NCBI GenBank assembly: GCA_964577595.1
Contig: CAZNZK010000001.1
Location: 1,434-65,433 of the forward strand
Reading direction: 5' to 3'
DNA length: 64,000 nucleotides
Source of the DNA: an uncultured Candidatus Saccharibacteria bacterium
GTDB taxonomy: Bacteria > Patescibacteriota > Minisyncoccia > Phycocordibacterales > JAKAEA01
Of the stretch, positions 1,740 to 58,694 are shown piece by piece. A program made the translations under genes and the position numbers. Positions within the stretch are counted from its first letter, which is position 1; every line of letters starts with the position of its first letter. The notes below the pieces were generated by a model. It saw only the letters and a list, made by a program, of their open reading frames with translations, was not told the DNA's origin and ran no database searches.

Positions 1740-1742
1740 TTC

Positions 1743-13179: not shown

Positions 13180-13252
13180 GCCGCCTTAGCTCAGTTGGTA
13201 GAGCAACTGTTTTGTAAACAGTAGGTCCCCAGTTCAAGCCTGGGAGGCGGCT
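13180..13252 (+). tRNA. tRNA-Thr (anticodon UGU)
   Basis: I folded the cloverleaf by hand. The acceptor stem is GCCGCCT/AGGCGGC. The D-arm is AGCTCAGTTGGTAGAGC. The anticodon stem ACTGT/ACAGT carries the loop TTTGTAA. The T-arm is CCCAG TTCAAGC CTGGG. No CCA is encoded. Confidence 0.85.
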
Positions 13253-34832: not shown

Positions 34833-35498
34833 ATGAAAAAAATATTCACGCAATCGGTTTATAACGCTTTAGTGACCAGTGTCTGCTCGTCGCTTGTTAT
34901 CGCGAGCGTGTATGTTGCCTTTGAACCGCTTTTTGCGCAGGGCGCGACGTCTCAAACGGTTACAGTCACCCTTAACGTGACGAGCGGCGTGGCGGTGACG
35001 GTTGATTCTAATGCTATCAACATGAGCACCAACTTGAGTGTTACGCAAAATACCGCAGTTGCCACTTCTACCTTTACCGTTTCCACCAACGACAACATTG
35101 GCTACACGTTCCAGTTGGCAGCAAGCACTAATTCGGCTATGCAATCGGGTGGTAATAAAATCGCTGATTTTCCTACTACAACACCGCAAACATGGACGAG
35201 CGGTATCGGAAACCCCGATGCACGTTTCGGTTTTTCGGTTATCGGCAGTGACTTAGCTGGTCCTGCGAGTTGGTGGGGTAGCGGTAGTTATTGTAATGGT
35301 GCTAGCACTAGCACAATTTCCACGACACTTAAATATTTTGGTTTTTACACCACCGCTACTACCACGTCAAAAAATTCCAGCACAACTACTCCTTCCGGTG
35401 ACACCACTATCGTTTGCTACGCAGTTAATCAAAATAATACCTACATCCCGAGCGGCACCTACACGGCAAGCATAACAGGCACGGCTATTGCCAACTAG
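34833..35498 (+). CDS. Secreted Thr/Ser-rich protein, paralog of the 36549 gene
   Basis: There is a signal peptide. Motifs shared with 36549..37325 are GY.FQL..ST, FGFS, a Cys pair, and C-terminal GTYTASITGTAIA. Confidence 0.7.
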   Translation: MKKIFTQSVYNALVTSVCSSLVIASVYVAFEPLFAQGATSQTVTVTLNVTSGVAVTVDSNAINMSTNLSVTQNTAVATSTFTVSTNDNIGYTFQLAASTNSAMQSGGNKIADFPTTTPQTWTSGIGNPDARFGFSVIGSDLAGPASWWGSGSYCNGASTSTISTTLKYFGFYTTATTTSKNSSTTTPSGDTTIVCYAVNQNNTYIPSGTYTASITGTAIAN

Positions 35499-35539
35499 TG
35501 CGCATTGCCATTTTTGCTCGCAGGGTGTAAATTTTCTCC

Positions 35540-36541
35540 ATGAACATGATTTCATCACGCAGGGCGCTCTCGGCTCTAATTCTCTTTATTAGTGTTGCTT
35601 TTTGCGTACTTCCCACAGTTACGGCTGCCGCGCCAGCCGGCGCAGGTCCATACCACATAGACGGGCTCTCTGTGGAAAGTCGTGGCGATTTTGTGTTGGA
35701 GCCAGCTAAACAAGAGACGTTCCTCAATCCTGGTGACACTGTCACGGAAATCATTTATGTAACCGACCGTGTCCGAGGTACTACTACGTTTAGTATTGGT
35801 ATCCAGGATTTCAAGGGTACTAATGACCCTAATGCGCCCGTGGCGATAGTTCCTCCAGGCCAAAGCGGTCCCGATTCGGGTAAGGATTTTCTCAGCGTGC
35901 CGGCTTCAGAGCTCACTCTTTCTTTTGGTCAGCGGGCCACGATTCCAGTTACGGTTACTGTCCCTAAAGATGCTTCGCCGGGCGGCTATTACGCGGCCGT
36001 CCTTATTTCCAATGAGCCAACGGTGGTGGCTACTAGCTCTACTTCAGTTACCGGTGCTACTCGCGTTATCTCGCGTCTTGGCACTCTCTTTTTCATTCGG
36101 GTTAATGGTCCCGCCAATCCGCAAGGCCAATTGCAGGATTTTCGCATTAATGCACCCACAAGCCGAGCGATTTACAACAGCGGGCCATTCACTTTTGAAA
36201 TGCTTTTCAATAACACCGGCAACCTCTACCTCACGCCTTACGGCACTATTACTATTAAGAATTTTCTCGGTTCAACTATTGCCACCGTGCCGGTGGATGC
36301 CTATTATTCTTTACCACAATCATTGCGCTATCGCGATGTAAGTTGGAATCAATTTGCCTTGTTTGGCCGATATACTGCCACACTCCAGCTTAATCGCAGT
36401 TACGGCGGCACTACTGACACCAAAACCATCGCCTTCTGGGTTATTCCGTGGGAGTTTCTGTTAACCGCTTTTGCTATCCTTTTTGTTGTAATCTTCGGCG
36501 TGATTTTCTTCCTGCGAACCTTTGAAGTGCGGCGAAAGTAA
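35540..36541 (+). CDS. Secreted protein with a cleavable signal peptide and a C-terminal TM anchor followed by RRK
   Basis: The signal peptide is ...VTAAAPAGAG. The C-terminus is FAILFVVIFGVIFFLRTFEVRRK. The architecture resembles DUF916/DUF3324-type cell-surface proteins, but this is inference. Confidence 0.7.
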   Translation: MNMISSRRALSALILFISVAFCVLPTVTAAAPAGAGPYHIDGLSVESRGDFVLEPAKQETFLNPGDTVTEIIYVTDRVRGTTTFSIGIQDFKGTNDPNAPVAIVPPGQSGPDSGKDFLSVPASELTLSFGQRATIPVTVTVPKDASPGGYYAAVLISNEPTVVATSSTSVTGATRVISRLGTLFFIRVNGPANPQGQLQDFRINAPTSRAIYNSGPFTFEMLFNNTGNLYLTPYGTITIKNFLGSTIATVPVDAYYSLPQSLRYRDVSWNQFALFGRYTATLQLNRSYGGTTDTKTIAFWVIPWEFLLTAFAILFVVIFGVIFFLRTFEVRRK

Positions 36542-36548
36542 TTAAACT

Positions 36549-37325
36549 ATGAAGCAGTTTTTGTTCGCGTTCATGGCAATGACGGTGGCGATGATGCTTG
36601 TGTGTATCGCGCGTTTTTTTGTGCCTGTCGCGGTCAGGGCCGCCATGCAAAGCTCAAAGTATGCCATTCCAACCGACAGTATTAATTTCGGTGGCGGCGA
36701 CAGCACCAGCACTAATTTTAGCGAAGAAGACACACTCGGCGAAGTGGGAAGTGGTTTGGGAACAAGCACCAAGTACTCACTCAACGCAGGTTACCAGCAA
36801 ATTTCCGGTTCCAGTATTTCTTTGACGTCAGCGGCCAATGTCACTTTGCCGGCTATTGGCGGTCTTAATTCCGGCACAACTATGGCCAGCTCAACCTGGA
36901 ACGTCACGACCGATGACGCGGCGGGCTATCAGCTTAGTATTCTTTCTGCCACAGCACCCGCTTTGGTAACGCCAGCCCATGCCTATTTCGGCGATTATGC
37001 GCCGAGTGGCGGGGTAGGCTCGGCCGACTTTACTTTCGCAGTAGGTAGCGGCGCTTCCACATTCGGCTTTTCTCCAGAAGGGCCCGACATCGTCAGTCGT
37101 TTTAAAGATACTGGTTCATCCTGTGGCACTGGTTCCAGCGACACGCCCATGGCCTGCTGGGCCGGCTTTACCACCACCAGCCAAACCATCGCCGCCGGTA
37201 GTGGCTACAATTTACCCGCTGGCGCTTCTACCACGGTTGAATATGAGGCTGGCATCGGTTCCAATAAAATTCAAGACGCGGGGACGTATACTGCCACGCT
37301 CACAGTCACCGCTGTCGCGCTGTAA
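36549..37325 (+). CDS. Secreted Ser/Thr/Gly-rich protein, paralog of the 34833 gene
   Basis: There is a signal peptide. The C-terminal motif is GTYTATLTVTAVAL. Confidence 0.7.
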   Translation: MKQFLFAFMAMTVAMMLVCIARFFVPVAVRAAMQSSKYAIPTDSINFGGGDSTSTNFSEEDTLGEVGSGLGTSTKYSLNAGYQQISGSSISLTSAANVTLPAIGGLNSGTTMASSTWNVTTDDAAGYQLSILSATAPALVTPAHAYFGDYAPSGGVGSADFTFAVGSGASTFGFSPEGPDIVSRFKDTGSSCGTGSSDTPMACWAGFTTTSQTIAAGSGYNLPAGASTTVEYEAGIGSNKIQDAGTYTATLTVTAVAL

Positions 37326-37351
37326 GCGCGACAATTTGTTATGATACGGTT

Positions 37352-38500
37352 ATGAAATACCGTTTTTCTGCTTTCTCTTTTTGTGTAGTTGTTTTTGTTT
37401 TTTGCACGCCCCCTCACGTATTTGCCGCTACTGCTCAAAGCGTGTGCGTTAGTTTGTCGGTAGGTAGTACTACCGACGCGGGTGACAATTGCTCGCCGCC
37501 GGTAGCCACGTCCACACCAACCACCACACCAACCACCACGCCGGCAACACCGCCCAGTCCATCAACCGTCACCTCGCCAAGCGCGCTTGCTGGCCCGGCA
37601 ATCATCCCCAACGTTAGTGACATCACTGTGGGCTACCAGGGCAATTCGGTGGTTATCAATTGGCATAATCCAACCGACGCGGCACATTTTTCTGGCGTGC
37701 GCATCGTGCGCTCGTCCTACACCGTGCCGCTCGATCAGTTTTCTGGGAAGGTCGTGTATCAAGGTTCCGGCACGTACGCGCTTGATACGGGTGGCATTCC
37801 CGGCACGGTCTATTACTACACCGCTTTCAGTTATGACGCGGTGGGGAATTATTCCTCAGGCGCTGTCTTTTTTGCCGTCTGGCCGAGCGTCGCCCTGCCG
37901 GTAGTGCCGCAATCGCCTAATCAAACTCAAAATCAATTTCCGGTGCAGTCAGTTTTTCCGCCGCTCTTTCCGCAGACAACAAGCTCGTCGTCGCCGCTGT
38001 TACCAAGCACGGGGGGTCGGCAGCTAATTTTTTCGCTAACAGATATCTCATTCATTCAGGACGGTCGCGTGCTTCTTTTAGCGAATAGCACAATTACAGC
38101 CGACGGCACCATGCCGCTCGTTGTGGCAGTTGCCGACAGTGCTGTCGCTAGAAAAATTTCCGGTGGTTTAGCACGGGCAATGATCGCGATAAATATTCTT
38201 GGTCATGAAAGTGCCTATTTGTTGCGCGAGAGCGCGGCCGACCAGGCTTCAGAAGCTCGTCTGGACTTAACAACGGTGCCAGCCGGCGGTTATCCTTTTG
38301 TGGTGGAATTTTGGCCGAATAGGGGAGAGCCTTTCGCCGTTTCCGGTACTCTTGTGGTTACTGGTTCGTCCACTTCAACTGGTATTTTAGGTACTGGTAT
38401 AAGCTTCGCTCAGCTAGGGAAGTTACTCATCTTGCTTGCCCTATTTTCCATTTTTATTTTACTCATTCATCGCGCCCGCCGTCACCAAAACCAGGGCTAA
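37352..38500 (+). CDS. Surface protein with a signal peptide, TPTTTPTTTP linker, fibronectin-III-like domain and a C-terminal TM anchor
   Basis: The Fn3-like segment is GYQGNSVVINWHNPTDAAHFSGVRIVRSSYTVP...GTVYYYTAFSYDAVGN. The C-terminus is LLILLALFSIFILLIHRARRHQ. Confidence 0.7.
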   Translation: MKYRFSAFSFCVVVFVFCTPPHVFAATAQSVCVSLSVGSTTDAGDNCSPPVATSTPTTTPTTTPATPPSPSTVTSPSALAGPAIIPNVSDITVGYQGNSVVINWHNPTDAAHFSGVRIVRSSYTVPLDQFSGKVVYQGSGTYALDTGGIPGTVYYYTAFSYDAVGNYSSGAVFFAVWPSVALPVVPQSPNQTQNQFPVQSVFPPLFPQTTSSSSPLLPSTGGRQLIFSLTDISFIQDGRVLLLANSTITADGTMPLVVAVADSAVARKISGGLARAMIAINILGHESAYLLRESAADQASEARLDLTTVPAGGYPFVVEFWPNRGEPFAVSGTLVVTGSSTSTGILGTGISFAQLGKLLILLALFSIFILLIHRARRHQNQG

Positions 38501-38679: not shown

Positions 38680-39108
38680 ATGGAAATTTTGCAAGATTTT
38701 ATTACGGCAGGTCAGGCGGCGAAGCTCGCTGGCTATAACCCTGATTACGTCAGTCAGCTCATTCGCGCCGGAAAAATTCGCGGAAAAAAAGTCGGTAAAA
38801 ACTGGGTAACAACCCGCCATGAATTAAGCCGCTACATACAAGTAGTAGGTGGTAAGCCTTTGCCGATTATTGGCTCCGGTCAGTCGGGTAGCCGCCGTCG
38901 CAATTGGCGCGGCCGTTTCGTGAGCCCGCTGTTTGTCATTGTGGCCGCTTTCATCGCGGGCTTTTTGGCCTTGGTCGGTTTCGGTGTGTATGCGTCCATT
39001 TACAACCAGGCTTTGAGTTCTGCACAAAACGGCTCACAGGCTTCTTCTACGATGACTGGATCAACGGCCGCCGCGGGCAACATTGTCACTAGCTTGCCGC
39101 AGCTATAA
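38680..39108 (+). CDS. Membrane-anchored helix-turn-helix protein (excisionase/MerR-like HTH_17-type N-terminal domain plus one TM helix)
   Basis: The HTH region is ITAGQAAKLAGYNPDYVSQLIRAGKIRGKKVGKNWV. The TM helix is FVSPLFVIVAAFIAGFLALVGFGVYA. Confidence 0.7.
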   Translation: MEILQDFITAGQAAKLAGYNPDYVSQLIRAGKIRGKKVGKNWVTTRHELSRYIQVVGGKPLPIIGSGQSGSRRRNWRGRFVSPLFVIVAAFIAGFLALVGFGVYASIYNQALSSAQNGSQASSTMTGSTAAAGNIVTSLPQL

Positions 39109-39113
39109 AAATC

Positions 39114-42100
39114 ATGTTCTCCCGCAACAACCAACCGAACAAGATTTTCAAAACAACACTCGTGGTGTTGGCGGTGCTTGTTGCGGCCGTAACCCTTTCC
39201 CTCGCCAGCTTCTTCACGGTTGCTCGCGCCGCTATCAACCCGGAAATTAATTACCAAGGCAAACTCACCACTAACACCGGCACGCTCGTTCCGAACGGTT
39301 CCTACAACGTTGAATTCAAACTCTACACCAACACCGGCACGAACATTTGGACGGAAGATGATCTTGTTTTCAACAGTCAGGGCGTTAGCATTACTAGCGG
39401 GCTTTTCAGCATTATGCTCGGCTCCACCACCGCGTTCACCGGCGTCAACTGGAATCAGACACTCTACCTCGGCGTCAATATCGGTAGCACCACTACCAGC
39501 CCCACCTGGGACGGCGAAATGACGCCGCGCAAAATTCTCGGCACTGTGCCAGCTGCATTTGTGGCACAAACACTTAATGGTCTTTCTTCCAGCGAATTCA
39601 TGCGTTCCGATGCTACCAACTCCACTTCCACCGCGAGCACATTCTTCTCCGTAACCCAAAGCGGTGCCGGTGACATTGCGGATTTTATTGGTCAAAACAG
39701 CGCGCCGGTGCTTTACCTCCAGTCCGGCGGCAGTGTTGGCATCGGCACCTCGTCGCCCTGGACTGCGCTTTCCGTGAAAGGCGCCAGTGACCTCGGTAAT
39801 TTTGCTCAAGCCGGCTACTTCGTTGGCACCACTACCGCAACATCAACCCTCGCTGGGGGCTTGCAAGCACTCGCGCTTAACATCACTTCTTCCACGGCTA
39901 GTTCCACATTTGGTAACGGTATCAATTTAGCGAAAGGTTGCTTCTCAGTCGCTGGTACTTGTCTTACTCAGTCTGCCAACTACTGGACTTCTGCTGGCGG
40001 CAACATCTACAACAACACCGGCACCAATGTTGGCATCGGCACCACTACACCGAATTGGAATTTGCAGGTAGCAGGCCAGAGCCCGGTGATCGCCCTCACC
40101 GACACTGGCGCGCCCGCTAATCAACAACACTGGTTCCTGGAAAGTCAGAATGGGGGATTCACTATTGGCACGAGTAGTAATAATCTCTCAGCCACCACCA
40201 CGTATTTGCGTTTTGACAATACAGCCAGCCGCAACAACACAGCTGTTGGCTTCACCGCGCTTTCGGCGGTGACCACCGGTTCGGCCAACGTTGCTCTCGG
40301 TTATCAGGCGGGTCAAGCTGTCACTGGTGCTTTTGATCAGACGCTTGTGGGTTATCAAGCTGGTTACAACACCACCAATAACACTAGTCAGCAGAATACT
40401 TTCCTTGGCTATCAGTCAGGTTTCAATAACACGACGGGTGCTTACAACACGGCTGTTGGCTCTGCCGCTTTTGCCGCCGGTTCCACTGGCAGTTACAACG
40501 TCCTTGTCGGCGCCAGCGCCGGCTACGGTTTTGCTACGTCTGGCTCCAATTCAAATAACGTCATTATCGGCTACAACGCTGTCGGCGGCGCGGCCGCGGC
40601 TTCCACGGGTAACGATACCGTTGTCGGTTATCAAGCTGGTTATACTCTCAATGGCGGCAACAACAACACGTTGTATGGTTTTCAAACTGGATACGGCCTT
40701 TCAAGCGGCGCGAATAATATTTTCCTTGGCTATCAAACCGCTTCCACCACAAGTAGTGGTTCCAATAATATTGCCATCGGGTATAACATTAATTTACCGA
40801 GCGTTAATGGTTCCAATCAATTAAATATTGGCAATATTTTGTACGGTACAGGGTTGACTGGCTCCCTCACCACTTCTGCTGGCGCCATTGGTGTCGGCAC
40901 GAGTAGCCCATGGGCAACACTTTCTGTGCAGGGTCCGGCGCAAAGCACGAGCCCTCTTTTTGCCATCGGCTCCACCACGAACGCAACTCTCTTCGCTATT
41001 CTGGCTAACGGCTTTGTCGGCATCGGCACGAGCACGCCGGCCAGCGAATTAGCGGTGAGCGGCAATGTTTCCATAAAAGAAACCGCAAATAACAACAACT
41101 GGCTTACGCTTTACAACGCTATTGGTAGCACCACTGGCATTATTCGCGAAAATAGCGGCTCTGGCTCCGGTGGCATTTCAATCCAAGGATTCCGTTCCGG
41201 TGGCAATGGTCAGGCCTTGGCTTTTTACGGCAAAGTACTCAAAGATGACGGCACTGAAGTAGCCGGATCTCTGTTTGATGTTATGCAAGGCACTACGGCT
41301 GTCGGCACTACTGGCAACAATGTCACCAACACCCCGATTGCCGCATTTTGTAATAATTACGAAGGCGGTCTCTTCAGTGCCACCACCACCTGTAAAGTTA
41401 TCTTCAGTGCCGCTGGCAACGTCGGCATCGGCACCACCTCGCCCTGGACTACGCTCTCCGTCAACGGCTCAAGTGACCTCGGCAACTTCGCCCAAGCTGG
41501 CTACTTCATTGGCACCACTACAGCAACGTCAACTCTCGCTGGTGGCTTGCAAGCACTCGCGCTCAACATTACCTCAACAACCGCGAGCTCAACCTTTGCC
41601 AACGGCATCAACCTCGCCAAAGGTTGCTACGCTATCGGTGGTAGTTGTTTGAACGTCAACAACTTCTGGACATCGCTCAGCGGCAATATCTACAACAACA
41701 CCGGCACTAACGTTGGTATTGGTACTAGCACACCGAATGCCTCGCTCTTTGTCACCACGGCTGGTCAGCAAAACGGTAGCTCGCCGCTCTTTACTGTGGC
41801 TTCTACCACTGGCGCCTCACTTTTCACCGTGCTTGCCAACGGCAATGTTGGCGTTGGCACCAGCTCTCCATATGGCGCGCTCGGTATGAATGGCACGGTA
41901 GATGCCACGGCCTTCATCGGTAATGGCGCTGGCCTCACGCAGCTTACCGCCGCTGGCTCGTTGGGCGGTATACAATTTAATGACACCCTCATTCTTAATT
42001 CGGACACTATCAACCAGCCGGGTATTAATGACTCTAGTTACAACGTCACTTCTTTTGTTGTTGCGCACGGTTCCCGCTTCAGTATTGGTAACATAGTTAA

Positions 42101-45100
42101 GCAAGAAGCCAGTACTCCAGAATTAATGCTGGTTACGGCCGTTAGTGGCAACACACTCACGGTCTTCAGGAATTATCCAACGGGAGCTTACCCAACGGGT
42201 CGCTCCCAGCTCCTGAATAACGAAGTGTTGGATATCGTCGCACTTAATCAATTTAATTCCGATGCTACGCTTACGTGGGATAATATCAATAAGCGCTTGG
42301 GCGTTGGCACGACCACATTTAGTGGTAACACCATTTTGGCTATCGGCGGTGTAGCGGCCAATAACAATATTGGTTTGAGTCTGGAGGATGGAGGTGTCTC
42401 ACAAGGGTCACTCGTGCTTGATAACACTGATCAGGTTCTGCTTAGTGCTACGAACGGCTCAGGTTACAACAACATTATTCTTAGCGGTGCGAATATTACT
42501 CTGAATGGAGGCCTCAATTCTGCCACCCTTGATCAAAACGGCACCTTTAATGTCGGCGACCTAGTTGACGGTGGCCAAATCACCGTTGGCGGTGCTACGG
42601 GTGTTGGCGCAACGCTTACCGCAACCGAATTAACTTTGGGGGTTGACGATACAATTACTGCGAATGCTGGCTTTGATGGGGGGCTACTCTTTAATAACGA
42701 CAATACTACTGGTTATCAGTGGGAGTCTAATAATCTTTCCATCGCCACACTTGGTTCTACCGGCAATCTTGCCGCCTCTGGCACCATCGCCGTGCAGGGC
42801 ACTGGCACGAGCACGTTTGCTGGCGGCCTCGCCGCAAACATTTTTAACGCTACTTCTGCGACCGCAAGTTCCACCTTTGCCAACGGCATCAACTTAAAGA
42901 ATGGTTGCTACGCCATCAGTGGCGCTTGTATCGGCACCGGCGCGGCAACACTCACTGGCGGCGTGGCTGGCGCGCTCACGTATTGGACGGGTTCTGGCAC
43001 TGTGGGCGCCACCACATCGCCAACGTTTAATGCTTTCTATGCCACCTCAACCACGGCCACCTCCACCATCGCTGGTGCCCTCACTATTGGCTCGACCAAT
43101 ACCAACATCTACCCCAACGCGCCACTTATTCTGACAGGCAACGTCAATAATGCCAGCCAGTTTGTAATGCAAAATTTGAGCAATGGCAGCAATGCCTCGG
43201 CCGATTTGATCGTGGGTGCTGACCTCATGAACAACAGCTCGTATTACGGCGACCTTGGTTACAACAGCTCTGCTAACACTGCTAGCGCGTACACTGGCTT
43301 TGCCGCTAACGACCTCTATCTCTATTCCAGTGACAGTAATCTTGACTTGGCCGCCGCAAGCACTACCGGCCCCGCCAGTATCAACTTCCTCACGGGCGGC
43401 ACTTTGGCGGCGAATGTCCGCATGACCATTGGCAATACCGGTAACGTCGGCATCGGCACTACGAGCCCCTACGCCCGCCTCTCTGTGTGGGGAGCAAACG
43501 CTCTTTCCGGCAGTAATCTTTTCCTGCTTGCCAACAATGCTTCAACGACACTCTTCGCGGTTGATGGCGCCGGCAACGTAAACATTCCTGTGGCGACTGC
43601 CACCACCACTATCGCTGGCGGCTTTGATGTCGGCAACGGCTCGCTCCACTATGAATCGTCCACCGGTCAAACTAATATCAGCAATCTCCAGATAGGGGCT
43701 CTTTCATTCCCGAGCGATTCCGGTGTGCTCACTTGGGCCGACATGCCGGTGACCACGGCTTCAGCCATGGGCACGCTGGAAAGTTACAGTGCTAACATTG
43801 ATGGTAGTGTTCTTTTGACAATTGCGGCGCAGGCAGATGGCTTGGGCGGTATCCAAAACGCCGGTATCGGTATCGGTACGACGAGCCCGATGGCCACCTT
43901 AGCCGTTCAGGGGTTGACCGGTACCACAACGCCGTATCTTTTTGCCGTTGCTAGTTCCACGGGGCAAACATACTTAACTATTGATAATAACGGCACTACT
44001 ACAATTCGGGGAAACTTGGTTGTCTACGGTAATATCGTTCCAGGAAACACGGATACGTATAGTCTTGGTACGGCTTCTTCTACGACGGAATGGAAGAGTT
44101 TGTACGTGGCAACCTCAACGATTTATTTGGGTGGGACGGCCGTAAGTATCAGTAATGGTAGTTTGCTCGTGGGCGGTAATCCGGTGACTGGCGGCGGAGC
44201 CACCACTGAGAAATGGGCAACATCTACCGATCTCACCTCTATATATACCAATACCGCCACCAAAATTGGCATCGGCACGTCGTCGCCTTGGGCAACCCTA
44301 TCCATCACCGGTTCTTCCGATCTTGGTAACTTTGCTCAGGCTGGATACTTCACAGCAACAAGCACGACTGGCACTAGCTATTTCGCGGGCAAGGTTGGTG
44401 TTGCTTCCAGTACTCCTTACGCGAATCTCTCCGTTTCCAGTCTTTCTCAACAAGTTGGCACTTTGCCGCTCTTCCAGGTTGGTAGCACCACTAACGCTTC
44501 GCTCTTTAATGTTCTTGGCAACGGCAATGTCGGCATTGGCACCACTTCACCGTATTCATTCCTTTCAATTCAGACGCCATCCAGTTTTGCCGGTCAGATT
44601 ATTGATATCTCCACCAGTGCTGGCGCGTCACTTCTCCATCTAACGAACGCTGGTAATCTTGGCCTTGGCACCACTTCGCCGTGGAGCACCTTCTCCGTCA
44701 AAGGCTCTTCCGACCTCGGCAACTCCGCTTTGGCCGGCTACTTCACGGGCACCAGCACAGCAACCAGCACGTTCACCGGTGGCCTCGCCGCAAACATCTT
44801 CAACGCTACTTCTGCGACCGCCTCTTCCACCTTCGCCAACGGCATCAACCTTACGAACGGTTGCTACGCCATTGCGGGCACTTGTTCCACTATTGGTTCC
44901 GGCTCTGCTGGCTGGTTGTCATATTACGCCGGTACTGGCCAGGCGCTTACCGCCACCTCTTCCATCTTCCTTGCTACTAGCGGCAACGTTGGTGTCGGTT
45001 CTACCACGCCCTATGCCACGCTTTCCGTTTCCACCCCTGGCCAACAAATTGGCACCCTGCCGCTCTTCCAGGTCGCCTCAACCACCAAGGCCGCCATCTT

Positions 45101-46640
45101 CAGTGTCTTTGGCAACGGTCTTGTTGGCATCGGTAGTAGCACGCCATGGGCATCGCTCGGTATCTCTACACTCGCCCAGCAAGCTGGCACGCTGCCGCTC
45201 TTTAGTGTGGCTTCTACGACAGGCGCACAAATCTTCACGGTTACGGGCAACGGCACGTTTACCTATGGTGTCAACTCAACGTCCACCATTCCTAACAACA
45301 CTACTGGCGCTTGGATAATTTCTACCTCAACAGCCGCCAATGCCACACCGCTCTTTAGGATTGATACAACGACCAATGCTGAAAAAATTGTCCTCGGCAC
45401 AGCCTCGAGTAGCGACGTGATTATTGGCGATAACGGCATTTCACCCAACCTCGTCTTCTACAACAGTGGCACTATCAAGGGCTTTACCAGCGGCGGTTCA
45501 ACCATCACACTCGGTTCCGGCAACGACATCATCAACTCCGCGGTCAAATTCGGCATCGGTTCTACCAGCCCGTGGCGCGCACTTTCCGTTAACGGCACGG
45601 CCGCCTTTACCGGTCTTACATCTTCGGTTACTGGCACTGCGGTATGTATCGCCGCCGGCACGGGTGAGCTCTTGAACTCTGGCGGCTCTAGCTGTACGCC
45701 GTCATCAATTCGTTTCAAAGAAAACGTCAACACACTAAGTCCGGGCTTTGCTCTTAATGAGCTTGATGAATTACGCGTGGTCTCTTTTGATTACAAGCCC
45801 GGCGATTATCCTACGTGGGATAGCCCGCATTCTTACGGTATGATTGCTGAAGAGGTTCAGCAGATTGACCCAACCTTGGTAGATTATGGTAGCGATGGTC
45901 AGCCCTTCTCCTTGCGCTTTGAAAAAATCACCGGTCTTACTGTGCAAGCCATTCAGGAATTGAATTTGAATTTGGAGACAATCGCTTCCACTACTGCAAG
46001 CACGACGCCGGAATCACAAGGTTTTGCCAGCGCCTTCTTCGGTAATTTGTTCCACCAAATCAGCACCTGGCTGGCCAGCACCACTAACGGCATCAGCGAC
46101 CTCTATGCCACTGTCTTCCATAGTAATGAAGTAGATACTAACAAGCTTTGCGTTGGCACAACCTGCGTTACGCAACAGCAATTTATGGCGATGGTAAATG
46201 CTTCAGTCAATAATGGGGGAGGTTCGTCTGGTACCACTTTTAGCGGATCTAGCGTCGGCACCGGTAGTACAAGTGGAACAACGGGTGGCACTACTACGAC
46301 AGCTGGCACCACAACCACGGCCACGAGTACCGACACAACCACGAGTTCGGGTACTGGTTCGGACACGGCCACAACCACTCCCGTGACCACGACAGGTGGG
46401 GGTGATTCTGGCACGACATCCGCCACAACAACCGATACTACAACTAACACAACAACCGGCGACACGAATACTAATCCGGCTACGCCGACTACCGATACAA
46501 CCACCACAAGCACCGACACCACATCCACCACTAATACAACCAGCTCAACTGACACCACGAGCGCAACCGATGCGTCCACACCAGCGCCAACAACTCCCGC
46601 GCCCAGTTCTGACACAACGAGCCCAACCACGACACCATAA
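39114..46640 (+). CDS. Giant (2508 aa) tail-fibre-like surface protein: signal anchor, conserved N-terminal INYQGKLT module, many repeats of the (N)VGIGT(T/S)SP(W/Y)..LSV type, a C-terminal peptidase-S74-like intramolecular chaperone (CIMCD) domain, then a ~140-aa Thr-rich tail
   Basis: The N-terminal TM helix is followed by AINPEINYQGKLTTNTGTLVPNGSYNVEFKLY. The repeat unit ...GIGTSSPWT.LSV.G.SDLGNFAQAGYF.GTTTATST... recurs. A Ser-Lys dyad, SSIRFK, is encoded at 45702-45719. The region around that dyad through DELRVVSFDYKPGDY...GMIAEEVQQIDP resembles the endosialidase CIMCD. The T-rich tail spans about 46210-46637. Confidence 0.9.
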   Translation: MFSRNNQPNKIFKTTLVVLAVLVAAVTLSLASFFTVARAAINPEINYQGKLTTNTGTLVPNGSYNVEFKLYTNTGTNIWTEDDLVFNSQGVSITSGLFSIMLGSTTAFTGVNWNQTLYLGVNIGSTTTSPTWDGEMTPRKILGTVPAAFVAQTLNGLSSSEFMRSDATNSTSTASTFFSVTQSGAGDIADFIGQNSAPVLYLQSGGSVGIGTSSPWTALSVKGASDLGNFAQAGYFVGTTTATSTLAGGLQALALNITSSTASSTFGNGINLAKGCFSVAGTCLTQSANYWTSAGGNIYNNTGTNVGIGTTTPNWNLQVAGQSPVIALTDTGAPANQQHWFLESQNGGFTIGTSSNNLSATTTYLRFDNTASRNNTAVGFTALSAVTTGSANVALGYQAGQAVTGAFDQTLVGYQAGYNTTNNTSQQNTFLGYQSGFNNTTGAYNTAVGSAAFAAGSTGSYNVLVGASAGYGFATSGSNSNNVIIGYNAVGGAAAASTGNDTVVGYQAGYTLNGGNNNTLYGFQTGYGLSSGANNIFLGYQTASTTSSGSNNIAIGYNINLPSVNGSNQLNIGNILYGTGLTGSLTTSAGAIGVGTSSPWATLSVQGPAQSTSPLFAIGSTTNATLFAILANGFVGIGTSTPASELAVSGNVSIKETANNNNWLTLYNAIGSTTGIIRENSGSGSGGISIQGFRSGGNGQALAFYGKVLKDDGTEVAGSLFDVMQGTTAVGTTGNNVTNTPIAAFCNNYEGGLFSATTTCKVIFSAAGNVGIGTTSPWTTLSVNGSSDLGNFAQAGYFIGTTTATSTLAGGLQALALNITSTTASSTFANGINLAKGCYAIGGSCLNVNNFWTSLSGNIYNNTGTNVGIGTSTPNASLFVTTAGQQNGSSPLFTVASTTGASLFTVLANGNVGVGTSSPYGALGMNGTVDATAFIGNGAGLTQLTAAGSLGGIQFNDTLILNSDTINQPGINDSSYNVTSFVVAHGSRFSIGNIVKQEASTPELMLVTAVSGNTLTVFRNYPTGAYPTGRSQLLNNEVLDIVALNQFNSDATLTWDNINKRLGVGTTTFSGNTILAIGGVAANNNIGLSLEDGGVSQGSLVLDNTDQVLLSATNGSGYNNIILSGANITLNGGLNSATLDQNGTFNVGDLVDGGQITVGGATGVGATLTATELTLGVDDTITANAGFDGGLLFNNDNTTGYQWESNNLSIATLGSTGNLAASGTIAVQGTGTSTFAGGLAANIFNATSATASSTFANGINLKNGCYAISGACIGTGAATLTGGVAGALTYWTGSGTVGATTSPTFNAFYATSTTATSTIAGALTIGSTNTNIYPNAPLILTGNVNNASQFVMQNLSNGSNASADLIVGADLMNNSSYYGDLGYNSSANTASAYTGFAANDLYLYSSDSNLDLAAASTTGPASINFLTGGTLAANVRMTIGNTGNVGIGTTSPYARLSVWGANALSGSNLFLLANNASTTLFAVDGAGNVNIPVATATTTIAGGFDVGNGSLHYESSTGQTNISNLQIGALSFPSDSGVLTWADMPVTTASAMGTLESYSANIDGSVLLTIAAQADGLGGIQNAGIGIGTTSPMATLAVQGLTGTTTPYLFAVASSTGQTYLTIDNNGTTTIRGNLVVYGNIVPGNTDTYSLGTASSTTEWKSLYVATSTIYLGGTAVSISNGSLLVGGNPVTGGGATTEKWATSTDLTSIYTNTATKIGIGTSSPWATLSITGSSDLGNFAQAGYFTATSTTGTSYFAGKVGVASSTPYANLSVSSLSQQVGTLPLFQVGSTTNASLFNVLGNGNVGIGTTSPYSFLSIQTPSSFAGQIIDISTSAGASLLHLTNAGNLGLGTTSPWSTFSVKGSSDLGNSALAGYFTGTSTATSTFTGGLAANIFNATSATASSTFANGINLTNGCYAIAGTCSTIGSGSAGWLSYYAGTGQALTATSSIFLATSGNVGVGSTTPYATLSVSTPGQQIGTLPLFQVASTTKAAIFSVFGNGLVGIGSSTPWASLGISTLAQQAGTLPLFSVASTTGAQIFTVTGNGTFTYGVNSTSTIPNNTTGAWIISTSTAANATPLFRIDTTTNAEKIVLGTASSSDVIIGDNGISPNLVFYNSGTIKGFTSGGSTITLGSGNDIINSAVKFGIGSTSPWRALSVNGTAAFTGLTSSVTGTAVCIAAGTGELLNSGGSSCTPSSIRFKENVNTLSPGFALNELDELRVVSFDYKPGDYPTWDSPHSYGMIAEEVQQIDPTLVDYGSDGQPFSLRFEKITGLTVQAIQELNLNLETIASTTASTTPESQGFASAFFGNLFHQISTWLASTTNGISDLYATVFHSNEVDTNKLCVGTTCVTQQQFMAMVNASVNNGGGSSGTTFSGSSVGTGSTSGTTGGTTTTAGTTTTATSTDTTTSSGTGSDTATTTPVTTTGGGDSGTTSATTTDTTTNTTTGDTNTNPATPTTDTTTTSTDTTSTTNTTSSTDTTSATDASTPAPTTPAPSSDTTSPTTTP
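39753..40055 (+). repeat. Intragenic ~300-nt direct repeat, copy 1 (about 85% identical to 41439-41737)
   Basis: Read directly from the sequence. A third, more diverged copy lies at about 44270-44420. Another pair lies at about 42830-42900 and 44770-44860. Confidence 0.7.
41439..41737 (+). repeat. Intragenic ~300-nt direct repeat, copy 2
   Basis: This copy aligns with 39753-40055 nearly codon for codon. Confidence 0.7.
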
Positions 46641-47701
46641 TGTTAAAAACACCCACAATAAAAAAAATAAACCGGTGCCTGACCCCCATTCTTATTTTCG
46701 TTATACTTTTTTCGTTTCCAGGCGTGCTTGAAGCGGCGGCTATCAACGGCTACACGGTTGTATTTATAACCAACGGCACCACGAGTTGGGTGCCCCGTAG
46801 TGATTGGAACCCGGCTTCAAATACGGTGGAGCTTATTGCCGGCGGCGGCGCGGGGGCGAGTGGGTTAAACGCCACAAGCTCCACTGCGTCCCCGGGTGGC
46901 GGTGGTGGTGCGGGAGGCGCGTACGTTAAACTTTCCAACGTTAGTTTGGTTGTTGGCGACGTGGTGCAAATGTCCGTGGGCGCGGGCGGAGCCACGAGCA
47001 CGCTTACCTCAACGGCCGGCGGCGACACGTGGTTTTGGTCAAACACTTTTGCGCTCGCCAAAGGTGGCGGTGGAGCCTCAACGACCAGTAACTATGATGG
47101 CGGTGCCACCACGACTGGTTCGCTTGGTCCAATAATAAAAAACGGAGGCTATGGTGGCGGTAGTGGCGGTGTTGGTGGCTCTACGTGTACGGCAAGTGGC
47201 GGTGGCGGTGGCGGCGGCGGCGCGGCGGGGCCGGACAAGTCGGGTGTGGCTGCGGCCACGAGCACAGCCAGCACGTGTACCACAACAAACACTGCCGGCA
47301 CTGTCGGCGGCACTGCTGATGGTGCAATAGTTGCCGGCGGCACAGCTGGCGCGGCGGGAGGTGCTGGTGCAATTGGTGGTAAAGGCGGTGCTGGTACTGC
47401 TGGAAGTATGTACACAGCCAACCCTGTTGGCACAACGGGCGGCTCAGGAAGCGGCGGCGGCGGGGGAGGCGGTGCTAAAAGTACATTTGCCGGCGGTGGC
47501 GGAGGCTTGGCCGGTAACTATGGTGGCGGTGGCGGTGGAGGTGGGGGTGCAGGAGGCACTGCCGCAACTAAAGGCGGCCCTGGCGCCAACGGCGCTCCTG
47601 GCCTTATTGTTATCAGTTTTACTGAATTAGCTAGCACTACTGCGCGGCGAATCCGCTTGCTCGGCGGTGTTACATTTTTAGGTGGCGTCCGGCTTTACTA
47701 A
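46640..47701 (+). CDS. Secreted Gly-rich protein (GGxGG-type low-complexity repeats), translationally coupled to the giant gene (TAATG)
   Basis: The signal peptide is MLKTPTIKKINRCLTPILIFVILFSFPGVLEA. The body is G-rich and the C-terminus reads GGPGANGAPGLIVISF. Confidence 0.7.
   Translation: MLKTPTIKKINRCLTPILIFVILFSFPGVLEAAAINGYTVVFITNGTTSWVPRSDWNPASNTVELIAGGGAGASGLNATSSTASPGGGGGAGGAYVKLSNVSLVVGDVVQMSVGAGGATSTLTSTAGGDTWFWSNTFALAKGGGGASTTSNYDGGATTTGSLGPIIKNGGYGGGSGGVGGSTCTASGGGGGGGGAAGPDKSGVAAATSTASTCTTTNTAGTVGGTADGAIVAGGTAGAAGGAGAIGGKGGAGTAGSMYTANPVGTTGGSGSGGGGGGGAKSTFAGGGGGLAGNYGGGGGGGGGAGGTAATKGGPGANGAPGLIVISFTELASTTARRIRLLGGVTFLGGVRLY
46670..46685. repeat. Half-copy, in reverse orientation, of the GGGTCAGGCACCGGTT repeat family, embedded in the signal-peptide codons of the 46640 gene
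   Basis: It reads AACCGGTGCCTGACCC and matches 16 of 16 positions. With flanks, 21 of 22 positions match copy A. Confidence 0.7.
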
Positions 47702-47718
47702 AAACACTTTATATATAC

Positions 47719-48321
47719 ATGCAACGCCGAACTCTCTTTCTTTCCATAATAGCCATCTGCTTGGTTGCGTTGGCACTTGTCGCGATATTCTTTATATATG
47801 TATATCATCACGCCGATCCAGAATCTCTTGCACGTGTTGACGTGCCTGGCCCTGCCGTTCCCACTAGCCCCATGATTGCTGAAACTCTGCCTGATGGCCA
47901 GAAATCCTATGTCAATAAGTACTATCATTTCTCGCTAGTATATCCACCCGATCTTGCTCTTACGGAATATGCTGAAGCCGGCGGCGGTCGCACTATCGTT
48001 TTTCAGGAAAACCCGGCCACTAATACGCCTATTTCAGCCCAGAAAAATCTCAACGGTTTCCAAATTTTCATCATTCCCTATGCCGACTCGGAGCTTTCCG
48101 ATGCCCGTTTCAAGATGGATGAACCCTCCGGCATTCATGATGACCCGCAGAATGTCGTCATTGGCGGTGTCACCGGCACTATTTTTTACGGCCGCAACTC
48201 CATCATGGGGGACACGCGCGAGCTCTGGATAATCCACGGTGGTTTTCTCTATGAAATCACCACATATAAGCCCCTGGATTCTTGGCTCGCTGGTATAATG
48301 AGCACCTGGAAATTCCTATAA
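47719..48321 (+). CDS. Hypothetical protein with an N-terminal TM helix
   Basis: The TM helix is LFLSIIAICLVALALVAIFFIYVY. A TATA-rich box lies immediately upstream of the ATG. Confidence 0.55.
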   Translation: MQRRTLFLSIIAICLVALALVAIFFIYVYHHADPESLARVDVPGPAVPTSPMIAETLPDGQKSYVNKYYHFSLVYPPDLALTEYAEAGGGRTIVFQENPATNTPISAQKNLNGFQIFIIPYADSELSDARFKMDEPSGIHDDPQNVVIGGVTGTIFYGRNSIMGDTRELWIIHGGFLYEITTYKPLDSWLAGIMSTWKFL

Positions 48322-48322
48322 A

Positions 48323-50533
48323 ATGAAAAAATATTTCTCAAAAATTTCTATAGTGCCCGCCATCTTCATTGTTGTGGCTTGCGTCGCGCCGCAGGCCGCC
48401 AAGGCTGCGGTTATTCAGGCGCCAATTTCTCTCGGCACCCTCGGTAATGGTCTTGTTGACTACTACACTATGGATGGCGTGAATATCAACTGGGGTACTG
48501 GCGTGGTTGCTGATAATTCTAATCATGGTAACACTGGCATTGTGACTAATATGGGCACGACGACGTCGCCTGTGGCAGGGAAGGTTGGGCAAGCGCTTAC
48601 TTTTAATGGTACGAATCAATACGTGAATGCTTCGGGAATACCATCGGTCAGTAACCCGCTTACTGTTGCCGTTTGGATTAATCCATCAGCACTTTCCCAA
48701 TCAAGTTTTAGCGCTGGCTCCGGAGGCACTATTATTGATGAAAATGAAGGCGGCGGAACCAGTGGTTGGGTTCTTGGTGTAAAAAATAATAACACCGTCT
48801 GGTTCTGGCCTTCTTCTGGTAATGATAAATACAGCACGGCGACCATTCCACTTAATACTTGGACGCATGTGGTGATAACCTACGATGGCACCAATATCCG
48901 TTTTTATATTAACGGTGGGCTTGATAGCACTCAGGTCATGTCTGCTCCCCAGGGGTCGGCCACCTTTTTCCGGGTAGGCGGAAAATCGTGGATAACGGGC
49001 TATTGGAAGGGTGGTTTGGACGATGTGCGTATCTATAATCGGGCGCTTTCAACTGCCGAGGCAAAACAGCTCTATGGTCTTGGTACCAGTAAAACTAACG
49101 CCGTCTCTTCGGCGAGTCCTTTGGCTAGCGGCTTGATTGGTTACTACACCCTAGACACCGCGAATATTAATTGGGGTACCGGCGCTGTCGCCGATAGTTC
49201 TGGTAATGGTCACACGGGCACAGTGACCAACTTAAGCACGCCAGCTTCAGTCGTGACGGGGCAGATCGGGCAGGGAATCTCATTTACCGGTAGTAATCAA
49301 TATATTGACACTACCAACTATGCCGACAATCCCAGCAATCTTTCTGTTGCTGGGTGGTTTAAATCCGGTGGAGATCAGACTCATAGTTTCTTGGTTGACA
49401 AAATGAGTAATTTTGGCAACGGGGCGGGTTGGACAGTGTATTTCAACCAAATATCCGGCGGAATGGAAATAGGTTTTGTAACTCAGGAAGCCGGCGGGAG
49501 TAATTGGGAGCAATACCAAAATCATTCTGATATTCCCGCTGATGGGCTATGGCACCATTTTGTGGCAACTCTCAGCGGTGGTCCTGGTAATGGAGGTATC
49601 ATTCTCATTTATATCGATGGATCGAGTGTGTCGCTGGACAATCTCAGTCGTGGAACATTTACCACTATAACTACCGCTGTCAATGTTAGAATGGGTAATG
49701 ACAGTGATGTAGAAAAGCAATTTATTGGTTCTCTCGATGATGTCCGTGTGTATAATCGCACTCTTTCTGCCACTGAGGTGAGTCAGCTTTATGCGCTTAC
49801 AACCAATACTGCTATCACGAAAGCGGCACCGGTGTACCTCAACACGTCATTAACGGGCGTGGGTGGCACGTTGACCCGCGGCCTTGTTGGTTATTGGACA
49901 ATGGACGGCGCAAATATTAATTGGAAAACTGCTGCAGTCGCTGATAACTCTGGCTATAGCAATGTTGGTGCGATGGTTACTATGAGCACGAGCACATCGC
50001 CTGTGGCAGGGAAAATTGGCCAGGCACTTAATTTCGTAAAATCTTTTTCACAGTATGTGAGTGTTCCTAGTAGCGTGATTACTCCACTCGTGACCACTGG
50101 CCTGGCCTCGGTTGCTTTTTGGATGAAGCCGGCGACGCTCGCGAGCTATTCTGCGCCTTTTGATTGCGGTCAAAGCGGCACATCTCGTCAGCTCAGTATG
50201 CTTATTAATAGCGCCGGTGGCGGCACCGTGGCCGCCAAAGGTGTTGCTGGTGCCGCCGCCACCTATTCTCCCGCTTGGACAATCGGTCAATGGCAGTTTG
50301 TAGTCATGACTGTTGATGCGACGAATTTCAAAACATATAAAAACGGCGTGCTCAACAGCACTACGGCTGGTGCGATTGGTTCTGGTTTTACCGACACCAG
50401 CGCCATTTGCCAGGTAGGAGGTAATCCCAGTGGCGGGGGTTCTAGTTTTGACGGTTCCATTGACGACGTTCGCGTCTATAACCGCGTACTCACCGCAGGC
50501 GAAATCACCCAGCTCTACAATCTCAGCAAATAA
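48323..50533 (+). CDS. Secreted protein with three tandem concanavalin-A-like/LamG (Laminin_G_3-like) domains
   Basis: There is a signal peptide. The three repeats each start (L)VDYYTMDG/LIGYYTLD/LVGYWTMDG..NINW..AVAD.SG...G. Each ends (L/I)DDVRVYNR.L...E..QLY. The ATG is 1 nt after the upstream stop. Confidence 0.85.
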   Translation: MKKYFSKISIVPAIFIVVACVAPQAAKAAVIQAPISLGTLGNGLVDYYTMDGVNINWGTGVVADNSNHGNTGIVTNMGTTTSPVAGKVGQALTFNGTNQYVNASGIPSVSNPLTVAVWINPSALSQSSFSAGSGGTIIDENEGGGTSGWVLGVKNNNTVWFWPSSGNDKYSTATIPLNTWTHVVITYDGTNIRFYINGGLDSTQVMSAPQGSATFFRVGGKSWITGYWKGGLDDVRIYNRALSTAEAKQLYGLGTSKTNAVSSASPLASGLIGYYTLDTANINWGTGAVADSSGNGHTGTVTNLSTPASVVTGQIGQGISFTGSNQYIDTTNYADNPSNLSVAGWFKSGGDQTHSFLVDKMSNFGNGAGWTVYFNQISGGMEIGFVTQEAGGSNWEQYQNHSDIPADGLWHHFVATLSGGPGNGGIILIYIDGSSVSLDNLSRGTFTTITTAVNVRMGNDSDVEKQFIGSLDDVRVYNRTLSATEVSQLYALTTNTAITKAAPVYLNTSLTGVGGTLTRGLVGYWTMDGANINWKTAAVADNSGYSNVGAMVTMSTSTSPVAGKIGQALNFVKSFSQYVSVPSSVITPLVTTGLASVAFWMKPATLASYSAPFDCGQSGTSRQLSMLINSAGGGTVAAKGVAGAAATYSPAWTIGQWQFVVMTVDATNFKTYKNGVLNSTTAGAIGSGFTDTSAICQVGGNPSGGGSSFDGSIDDVRVYNRVLTAGEITQLYNLSK

Positions 50534-50685
50534 GAACAGGACATTTTTTGCTTTTACTTTTCCGCGCCGCTATGCTAGTATCCTAGTAATCGTACGTTCT
50601 CGTTTCAAGCCGCGTCACTAGTTGAGTTGTTGGCCAAGAGGGGTCGGATACGATTGATTACTGTAAACAAATTTTCTGAAGTTAT

Positions 50686-50982
50686 ATGGCTAAAAAGTTA
50701 TACGTTGGTGGCTTGCCTTACAGCACTACGGAACAAGGTCTTCGCGATGTCTTCGCTAAGTATGGCGAAGTAACCGCATCCTCCATTATTATGGACAAGA
50801 TGACGGGCCGCTCGCGCGGTTTTGGTTTCGTTGAGCTTGAAGACGCCGGTGCCGACAAGGCCGTTGCCGAAATGAACGGTGCCCAATTTGAGGGCCGCCG
50901 CCTTACGGTCAACGAAGCTCGCCCCATGGTGCCTCGCGATGAATTTCGCCCGCGCTCTCCTCGTGGTGCTCAGCAGTTCTAG
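50686..50982 (+). CDS. RNA-binding protein with an RRM domain
   Basis: RNP-2 is KLYVGGL and RNP-1 is RGFGFVEL. Confidence 0.85.
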   Translation: MAKKLYVGGLPYSTTEQGLRDVFAKYGEVTASSIIMDKMTGRSRGFGFVELEDAGADKAVAEMNGAQFEGRRLTVNEARPMVPRDEFRPRSPRGAQQF

Positions 50983-51028
50983 GTTGATAGGCAGTTTTAG
51001 TCCGACCTCACTACTACGGTAGTGCGAA

Positions 51029-51056
51029 AAATCCCCGAGCAATTGGGGATTTTTTG
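51029..51056 (+). terminator. Rho-independent terminator after the RRM gene
   Basis: The stem AAATCCCC/GGGGATTT is followed by TTTTT. Confidence 0.7.
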
Positions 51057-51065
51057 TTGCGGGAA

Positions 51066-51269
51066 TTAAAAATTATTTCTTTTATCCAGAGTCCTTACCT
51101 GAGTGTCGTATTTAGTACCCGCAACTTTCCATTTTTCCTTAAGGTCTCTAAAATTTTTGGCAATCCTCTTTTTAAAGGTCACATCTCTATCTCCTTTAGT
51201 GTTATTAAATCGCTTGTCTGTCATTTTATAAAGCTCAAGTATTGTATATTCTTTTTTCTTCATGTCCAT
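51066..51269 (-). CDS. Small Lys-rich hypothetical ORF (67 aa) in an AT-rich islet
   Basis: Only the ORF itself supports this call. I recognise no motif. Confidence 0.3.
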   Translation of the reverse strand: MDMKKKEYTILELYKMTDKRFNNTKGDRDVTFKKRIAKNFRDLKEKWKVAGTKYDTQVRTLDKRNNF

Positions 51270-51640
51270 AGGGTTACAAATTAGTACTTAATAAGTAACT
51301 AGTATAAATGAGCGTTATGAATTTTGATAGTGCCTTTTCGGTACCTACAGAAAATTGTTTACAAAACGTGTATTTCCAGCATTTCTGCGTCGCTTTATTT
51401 TTAAAAATGGCCTACTGAAGGCGTGCTATACCACATTAGGTCACAAAAAAACATATGCGATTTAATGCATATGTTTCCTGCGGTAAAAAAGCCCTTTAGT
51501 TAGGGATCCTGCGTCGAAAAAATAATTTATTTGCAAAATTTGACAGGTTTTTAGAGCATTTTCTGTACCTTGCCTAAAGGCTTTTCTGACAGAACAGGAT
51601 TTTTTGGATTGCGCAAGGGTCTTCGGCGAAAATGTGGCTA

Positions 51641-58691: not shown

Positions 58692-58694
58692 TTT

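Follow-up and report, generated by a model that had tools for sequence, protein, structure and literature searches.

The 3' end of a giant open reading frame (ORF) in a 64,000-nucleotide stretch of contig CAZNZK010000001.1 from an uncultured Candidatus Saccharibacteria bacterium (the whole stretch is called the window below) encodes a genuine S74 intramolecular-chaperone domain, as confirmed by profile, motif and fold. Beyond it lies a long C-terminal extension, which is the rule in Patescibacteria, so that the window protein is typical of its own lineage. We consider it rather likely that what the region encodes is the C-terminal pro-domain of a giant Patescibacteria surface fibre specified by the cell's own chromosome, a fibre that would be exported, would trimerise with the help of the chaperone and would then cleave itself and discard a tail that had kept it soluble. 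An initial annotation of the interval 45660..46640, which is the 3' end of ORF 39114..46640 (+), had proposed an S74 domain of the endosialidase or tail-spike type with a Ser-x4-Lys dyad and a Thr-rich tail, and the peptide strings that it quoted are all present in the translation of this ORF.

When the whole 2508-aa protein was searched against Pfam-A the sole match was Peptidase_S74 (PF13884), at amino acids (aa) 2197-2256; it spans profile positions 1-57 of 58 and reaches E 6.5e-9 and a score of 36.4 bits, the gathering cut-off of the family being 22 bits; the last 408 aa searched alone gave E 5.1e-10 and 39.9 bits. The same 408 aa matched phrog_8215 (E 3.3e-10) and phrog_1980 (E 2.5e-6), both of them tail-fibre families of PHROG. 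A PDB sequence search with these 408 aa gave only the ICA (intramolecular chaperone auto-processing) domain of MyRF, 7dc3, at E 0.15, in an alignment that sets SSIRFKENV opposite ADLRAKEHV with Lys on Lys. Confirmation of the relationship required a search by fold. The AlphaFold2 model of aa 2141-2508, built on a 100-sequence alignment that takes in representatives of an exhaustive search, shows a beta-rich core with a predicted local distance difference test (pLDDT) of 92-98 for the block of aa ~2200-2280, followed by a long helix (model residues 129-151). The top Foldseek match of this model in the PDB is again 7dc3 (E 7.6e-6, probability 1.0, 28% identity over 116 columns), the next being GA-1 3gud (E 0.046) and endoNF 3gw6 (E 0.18), and these best matches are exactly the solved intramolecular-chaperone structures.

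The motif SSIRFKENV begins at aa 2197 (nt 45702) and gives the dyad as Ser2197-x4-Lys2202. Both residues are invariant in 10 of 10 sequences when the protein is aligned with the nine homologues of the first protein search, and each is found in 99 of the 100 rows of the larger alignment, where the sole exception is a gap; the residue that follows the nucleophile is Ser in 89 of the 100, and the family motif reads S-S-x-R-(F/Y)-K. Alignment to the S74 hidden Markov model and conservation of the dyad had both been set as tests beforehand, and on both counts the proposed chaperone domain and its dyad are borne out, the one by a score well above the cut-off together with the fold match, the other by the near-complete alignment columns. 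Profile, Ser-x4-Lys motif and fold are thus those of Peptidase_S74, and the position at the extreme C-terminus is absent; such a position, with about 90-170 aa from the Ser to the end, is customary in the family, but the Pfam definition does not require it and MyRF departs from it too.

The extent of the C-terminal extension was measured in aa, counting from the catalytic Ser up to the stop. It amounts to 312 aa in the window protein and to a median of 287 aa at 34 Patescibacteria genome loci (range 198-622), falling to 134 aa in 58 relatives from other phyla, mostly Acidobacteriota (105-167, with one outlier at 304), and to 99 aa in 95 from IMG/VR viral contigs (89-170). The initial view that S74 domains normally sit at the extreme C-terminus, and that the tail is unusual, therefore holds against the phages and the other phyla and fails against the Patescibacteria. 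Relatives are numerous: the exhaustive search returned 10,078 cluster representatives with E <= 1e-3, 134 of them reaching E <= 1e-30, and a scan of one genome per species returned 529, the best of them in Patescibacteria metagenome-assembled genomes (these include Paceibacteria, Taylorbacteria, Vogelbacteria and Zambryskibacteria) and then in Acidobacteriota.

Nor does the tail follow the chaperone directly, as first described, for about 75 conserved and partly structured residues (aa ~2292-2367) separate the two. From the S74 helix onwards the order is a short Ser/Thr linker, an aromatic amphipathic helix (FASAFFGNLFHQISTWLAS, aa 2299-2321), the stretch NGISDLYATVF, a Cys2346-x4-Cys2351 beta-hairpin and a short helix (aa 2354-2367); AlphaFold2 places the two helices at model residues 159-181 and 214-227 and the hairpin at 204-213, with pLDDT of about 66-84. 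No Pfam family matched this module in the search of the protein. It recurs in the Patescibacteria loci L001, L006, L010, L012, L014-L016, L018 and L027 with the consensus F..F....F.....W.A...NGI...FA.......LCV...C.TK..L..LL. A second variant has another Cys-pair module, ...D.VTG..YC..I..G.......G.C, in place of the helix and hairpin, and is found in L002, L004, L007, L008, L035, P0017, P0019 and P0021. In several Patescibacteria homologues an immunoglobulin-like (Ig-like) domain separates the Cys hairpin from the disordered tail, identified as PF16403 in P0008 and by the motif set ...GNNPA...Y.DLGA...D.AGN...R.V in L001, L013-L016, L024, L028 and L036; a folded domain placed beyond the predicted self-cleavage site suggests that the released fragment may itself be functional.

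The 141 aa of the tail proper comprise 66 Thr, 22 Ser, 10 Asp plus Glu and three hydrophobic residues, with no Lys or Arg. The tail had been called almost pure Thr, Ser, Asp and Pro, and the dominance of Thr (47%) and Ser is indeed clear, but Gly (12%) and Ala (7%) at least match Asp (7%) and Pro (5%). AlphaFold2 gives it a pLDDT mostly below 50 and no secondary structure, and the protein ends ...SSDTTSPTTTP, without hydrophobic or basic residues. The last 312 aa hold no transmembrane-like segment, the maximum of the 19-residue Kyte-Doolittle hydropathy (KD19) there being 0.79, and C-terminal anchoring was rejected, a hydrophobic segment and a sorting motif both being absent. Tandem Repeats Finder, run over 39000..47800, detected one weak 34-bp array of period 12 in the tail (score 40), and a recent origin of the tail by slippage was rejected because it holds that weak array alone. 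Its four Thr codons have shares of 32, 30, 20 and 18%, and over all its codons the base composition is near even at the third position, in contrast to a strong bias at position 1 (A 57%) and position 2 (C 67%). Such diverse codon usage, with almost no tandem repeat in the DNA, argues for a composition maintained at the level of the protein. The TAATG overlap of the giant gene with the next gene supports both its reading frame and its annotated stop. The antisense Val-rich ORF across this tract had already been taken for an artefact, rightly so, since in the register given by its coordinates its codons complement sense positions 2, 1 and the preceding 3, which turns AC-N (Thr) into GT-N (Val). 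Two ORFs in other frames over the tail (46198..46386 and 46396..46731) were likewise rejected as genes, being frame shadows of the AC-N-rich tract.

The property common to the family is a hydrophilic, disordered, neutral or acidic, Lys/Arg-free chain and not Thr-richness. The Cys hairpin is present in 95 of the 145 closest cluster representatives with locatable motifs, and in 93 of these 95 it is followed by a tail of 30 aa or more, mostly 60-150 residues. For 114 relatives' tails the median length is 96 aa and the median contents are 0.6% Lys+Arg, 14% Asp+Glu, 25% Ser+Thr and 15.5% Pro; the 80 tails without the Ig-like motif divide into 36 that are rich in Pro and Asp/Glu, 16 that are Ser/Thr-rich and 28 that are mixed. 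The window tail stands at the Ser/Thr-rich extreme, with 62% Ser+Thr against a maximum of 56% among the 114, and that of P0022 (126 aa; T 40%, S 15%, P 13%, D 10%) is of the same kind. O-glycosylation, suggested at first for the tail, is not a family-wide property given the many tails that are Pro/Glu-rich and poor in Ser/Thr, although it is possible for the window protein. In our reading, it is the physical character of the tail (hydrophilic, unstructured, and either uncharged or acidic) that would be under selection, and not its sequence.

Upstream of the chaperone the protein is fibre-like. Its N-terminus is strongly hydrophobic and then reads ARA|A, with a KD19 maximum of 2.66 over the first 60 residues, and so is signal-like, either a signal peptide or an anchor to judge by its sequence. 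The fibre body (39114..45701 +) has 15 G-x-G-T/S-x-S/T/N-P motifs, most of which run on as P-W/Y-x-x-L-S-V, and four copies of a module that ends ...ASSTFxNGINLxxGC(F/Y)xxxGxC, each with a Cys-x6-Cys pair. All 14 Cys of the 2508 aa occur as seven local pairs, and these, together with two DsbA-like thioredoxin-fold genes in the window whose products have N-terminal hydrophobic segments (33306..34034 (-) and 60541..61350 (+)), fit an extracytoplasmic protein. In the 100-sequence alignment Cys2178 is kept in 95 relatives and Cys2194 in 92, and the motif G-T-x-x-F-x-G-L-T nearby is also conserved; the segment that holds them, aa 2147-2196, would form the distal tip of the mature fibre.

In the maturation pathway that we propose, by homology with the C-terminal intramolecular chaperone domains (CIMCDs) of phages and with the Bdellovibrio fibre Bd3182, the 2508-aa precursor would be exported by way of its N-terminal signal or anchor, and the S74 chaperone (aa 2197-2291) would nucleate trimerisation and folding of the upstream fibre from the C-terminal end. 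The Ser2197/Lys2202 dyad would then cut the Pro2196|Ser2197 bond, so exposing the disulfide-looped fibre tip and releasing a 312-aa fragment made up of the chaperone core, the helix/Cys-hairpin module and the 141-aa tail. The tail would most likely serve to maintain the C-terminal folding nucleus in a soluble, extended and non-adhesive state within a negatively charged envelope up to the moment of cleavage, and would be discarded afterwards; that it leaves together with the chaperone, as was also supposed initially, is a reasonable inference. Strict conservation of the dyad argues for cleavage, and the position of the scissile bond is suggested by Bd3182 of Bdellovibrio, where experiments showed that cleavage occurs at S782, the mature fibre ends at A781 and an S782A substitution blocks cleavage (PMC10769870).

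The closest functional analogue is indeed the cell-encoded S74 subgroup of the mosaic adhesive trimeric (MAT) fibres of Bdellovibrio bacteriovorus, and the closest structure is the MyRF ICA domain. MAT fibres of the Bd3182 type are likewise encoded by the cell, with a signal peptide and a long fibre ending in a self-cleaving S74 chaperone whose cleavage exposes the distal tip; the MAT proteins are of about 1000 aa, 'terminating in' an S74 domain with an SDxxxK motif (PMC10769870). The window protein differs in its size of 2508 aa, its phylum, its SSxRFK motif and its extra module and tail. MAT proteins characteristically have a signal peptide and, after it, a conserved beta-rich N-terminal domain of ~130 aa; a signal-like N-terminus is present in the window protein too. 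MyRF shares with it a substantial sequence C-terminal to the ICA domain, and differs in being a eukaryotic membrane-tethered transcription factor with a transmembrane helix after that domain, whereas the window protein has no C-terminal transmembrane segment. With the CIMCD of phages and endosialidases (PF13884, MEROPS S74; 3GW6 of endoNF, 3GUD of GA-1) it has in common the profile, the Ser-x4-Lys at the start of the domain, the beta-rich core with its long helix and the location downstream of a long fibre-like region. In contrast to these, the window gene is cellular and chromosomal, its product is exported, the +1 residue is Ser and not Asp, and some 215 further residues follow the helix (linker, module of ~70 aa and 141-aa tail), well beyond where the viral homologues end. 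The Pro/Thr/Glu-rich wall-spanning regions of LPXTG-type surface proteins of monoderms are also long hydrophilic low-complexity stretches near the C-terminus of exported proteins; the window tail, however, has no sorting motif, hydrophobic segment or basic end, and lies beyond the predicted self-cleavage site.

Several points weigh against the maturation scheme. The AlphaFold2 model is of a monomer and its mean pLDDT is 66.8. The +1 residue is Ser in place of the Asp of the published SDxxxK consensus, which might bear on catalysis, though Ser at this position is a family trait. The 2196-aa body had no family match when it was scanned against Pfam, NCBIfam and PHROG, and its lone match in a PDB sequence search, the Bdellovibrio MAT fibre Bd2133 at E 0.046, is weak, at most suggestive and not significant, so that the trimeric fibre nature of the body is suggested by its repeats and by the S74 domain that follows them. 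Two relatives, P0010 and P0104, stop just past the Cys hairpin, and the tail may thus be dispensable, unless contig ends cut these proteins short. Trimerisation, the cleavage event with its exact position, what becomes of the fragment and what the tail does are all inferred, the last of these as a deduction from the composition and physical character of the tails alone.

It may be asked whether the tail has a role at all. That it is evolutionary filler, a low-complexity sequence that has piled up by slippage and drift in a fragment which is discarded anyway, we think unlikely, although neither sequence nor composition is conserved, with Thr/Ser-, Pro/Glu-, Asn/Thr- and Asp/Gly/Ser-rich forms among relatives, some of whose tails are obvious repeats such as TTPPVDTTTPPVD in L006. 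The apparently tail-less P0010 and P0104 are as filler would have it, and other exported proteins of the window also have S/T/G/P-rich low-complexity stretches. However, tails of at least 30 aa are all but universal in the hairpin-bearing relatives, the near-absence of Lys and Arg over the 114 tails points to constraint, and the window tract is no DNA repeat and draws on all four Thr codons; moreover the viral and non-Patescibacteria S74 proteins discard their chaperone likewise and have not built up such tails.

A different role would follow if the Patescibacteria S74 domain were built into a larger C-terminal pro-region that positions or tethers the folding nucleus at the envelope; self-cleavage would then be a switch that, in the manner of MyRF, releases or activates giant host-contact fibres, and the fragment might function itself. 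Such a pro-region may consist of the amphipathic helix, the disulfide hairpin, sometimes the Ig-like domain and the Lys/Arg-free tail, some relatives having a transmembrane anchor instead; we rate this rather unlikely.

It is doubtful, too, that the tail is a mucin-like O-glycosylated brush kept on the cell, in a glycocalyx or adhesive surface, the S74 domain being merely a trimerisation chaperone or the cleaved fragment staying non-covalently bound. The Ser+Thr content, highest among the related tails, would suit such a brush, and the folded PF16403 domain between hairpin and tail in some relatives makes the fragment look more than disposable. Yet the strictly conserved dyad argues for cleavage, the C-terminus has neither anchor nor hydrophobic segment, the genes identified in the 64-kb window include no glycosyltransferase, and the many Pro/Glu-rich tails with few Ser or Thr mean that glycosylation is not the family-wide role.

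The narrower proposal of a MYRF-like release switch, in which the extension holds the C-terminus at the membrane or wall for three chains to meet and self-cleavage then frees the tip or the fibre, appears improbable. It draws on MyRF being the best structural match, on the conserved aromatic amphipathic helix of aa 2299-2321, which could lie on a membrane surface, and on P0036 (...GLWGVIALLVAWNLYLTFRKK) and L081 (...YQWIIIGLLAIGYIRLNRKINKLTK), in which the S74 helix leads directly into a C-terminal transmembrane helix and a basic end that replace module and disordered tail, a MyRF-like arrangement in bacteria. But P0036 is the only one of 195 relatives screened by hydropathy to have a convincing C-terminal transmembrane segment, L081 having been recognised separately by reading of its sequence; the low hydropathy of the last 312 aa of the window protein also speaks against the switch, and its Lys/Arg-free hydrophilic tail has no obvious means of attachment. 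As an observation in its own right, IMG/VR files the contig of L081 (3652..6525) as viral, yet it is 58% identical to the window protein.

The genes of the window are those of a cell: rpoB, rpoC, dnaG, an rpoD-like sigma-70 gene, an AddA-like helicase-nuclease, BipA, Kup, cytochrome bd oxidase (cydAB), BacA, ribosomal proteins S2 and L25, EF-Ts, RF and several Laminin_G_3 surface proteins, with no phage structural or replication gene in the 64 kb and an even GC content across the giant gene. The giant gene, which has rpoBC, dnaG, the sigma-70 gene and bipA on its two sides, is a cellular chromosomal surface-protein gene and not a viral one, and the endosialidase or tail-spike identity first given to its product falls away. 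That the gene is instead one for a tail fibre or tail spike of a prophage or of phage descent, for which speak the matches of the C-terminal 408 aa to phrog_8215 and phrog_1980 and of the downstream gene to phrog_863, is hardly credible and was rejected on this gene context, the more so as the PHROG matches of the protein are confined to the S74 region, the N-terminus is of a Sec type absent from virion proteins and the viral homologues end much sooner after the Ser.

Patescibacteria (CPR) are ultra-small, and a life attached to host cells is assumed for most of them, which makes their giant surface proteins prime candidates for host contact; to our knowledge almost none of these has been characterised. 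One widespread class of them appears to be built like phage and Bdellovibrio fibres, and for it a concrete maturation step can be proposed, namely the predicted cleavage at Pro2196|Ser2197, which would leave as mature distal tip a disulfide-closed loop ending ...C-T-P. A literature search found nothing linking S74 or intramolecular chaperone domains to Patescibacteria, CPR, Parcubacteria or Saccharibacteria, and the extended pro-region, though common, appears to be undescribed. Assigning the domain is a routine matter; the Lys/Arg-free extension across the lineage is a real observation. This extension, with its near-absolute absence of Lys and Arg, may reflect the assembly of C-terminus-first fibres outside the cell as against in a phage-infected cytoplasm. 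For annotation, S74 matches in CPR genomes should not be taken for prophage tail fibres.

Table 1. Features of the giant gene and its surroundings, in window coordinates.
Feature	Position in protein	Coordinates	Strand	Basis or remark
Giant exported fibre-like protein	2508 aa plus stop	39114..46640	+	Complete ORF; the finding concerns its C-terminus
N-terminal signal peptide or membrane anchor (putative), MFSRNNQPNKIFKTTLVVLAVLVAAVTLSLASFFTVARA|AINPE		39114..39233	+	Sequence, Kyte-Doolittle hydropathy
ASSTFxNGINL..GC module copies	aa 276-283, 838-845, 1265-1272, 1917-1924		+	Motif reading of fibre body
Last fibre segment before predicted cleavage site, GIGSTSPWRALSVNGTAAFTGLT...C2178...C2194-T-P	aa 2147-2196	45552..45701	+	Conserved in relatives
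Catalytic dyad motif S2197-S-I-R-F-K2202	aa 2197-2202	45702..45719	+	Start of Pfam S74 profile; conserved dyad
S74 intramolecular chaperone core	aa 2197-2291	45702..45986	+	Pfam, AlphaFold2, Foldseek; beta-rich part, then long helix aa 2269-2291
Lineage-specific module after S74 core	aa 2299-2367	46008..46214	+	Recurrence in relatives, AlphaFold2
Thr-rich, Lys/Arg-free disordered tail	aa 2368-2508 (141 aa)	46215..46637	+	Composition, pLDDT, relatives
Val-rich ORF, frame artefact	175 aa	46103..46630	-	Antisense over Thr-rich tract; not a gene
Downstream gene, Gly-rich secreted protein, ...CCATAATGTTA	353 aa	46640..47701	+	Stop and start share one base, TAATG

The downstream gene of Table 1 is probably co-translated with the giant gene in the same operon, and its Gly-rich product may be a partner of the fibre. 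This protein has a signal-like N-terminus, and 76 of the residues in aa 141-335 are Gly; searches of Pfam and NCBIfam gave no match for it, and it matches phrog_863, 'tail fiber assembly', at E 6.7e-7. Just upstream of the giant gene (34833..38500, +) lie four successive ORFs of 221, 333, 258 and 382 aa, all with signal-like N-termini and none with a Pfam match; together with the giant gene they may form one cluster of surface-protein genes.

Predicted surface proteins are densely packed in the window. At 20587..24564, 31395..33305 and 48323..50533 (+) it encodes three large proteins of the Laminin_G_3 (concanavalin-like) type, each with a hydrophobic segment at the N-terminus and the first two with internal S/T/G/P-rich low-complexity linkers. 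The two DsbA-like proteins would suit disulfide formation outside the cytoplasm in the many surface proteins with paired Cys. The ~1.1 kb at 50534..51640 has no ORF of at least 150 aa, is low in GC (0.41 for 51001-52000) and has no Rfam match at the gathering threshold; an Rfam scan of the whole window gave only the tRNA-Thr at 13180. Patescibacteria usually lack respiratory chains; cytochrome bd oxidase subunits I and II are encoded at 57393..59666 (+) in what is apparently a Patescibacteria genome. At 840..2504 (+) lies a type II restriction-modification pair, an N6_N4 DNA methylase with an EcoO109I-family endonuclease; GC in this stretch is markedly low, at 0.36-0.39 compared with about 0.51 in other parts, and the pair was probably acquired horizontally.

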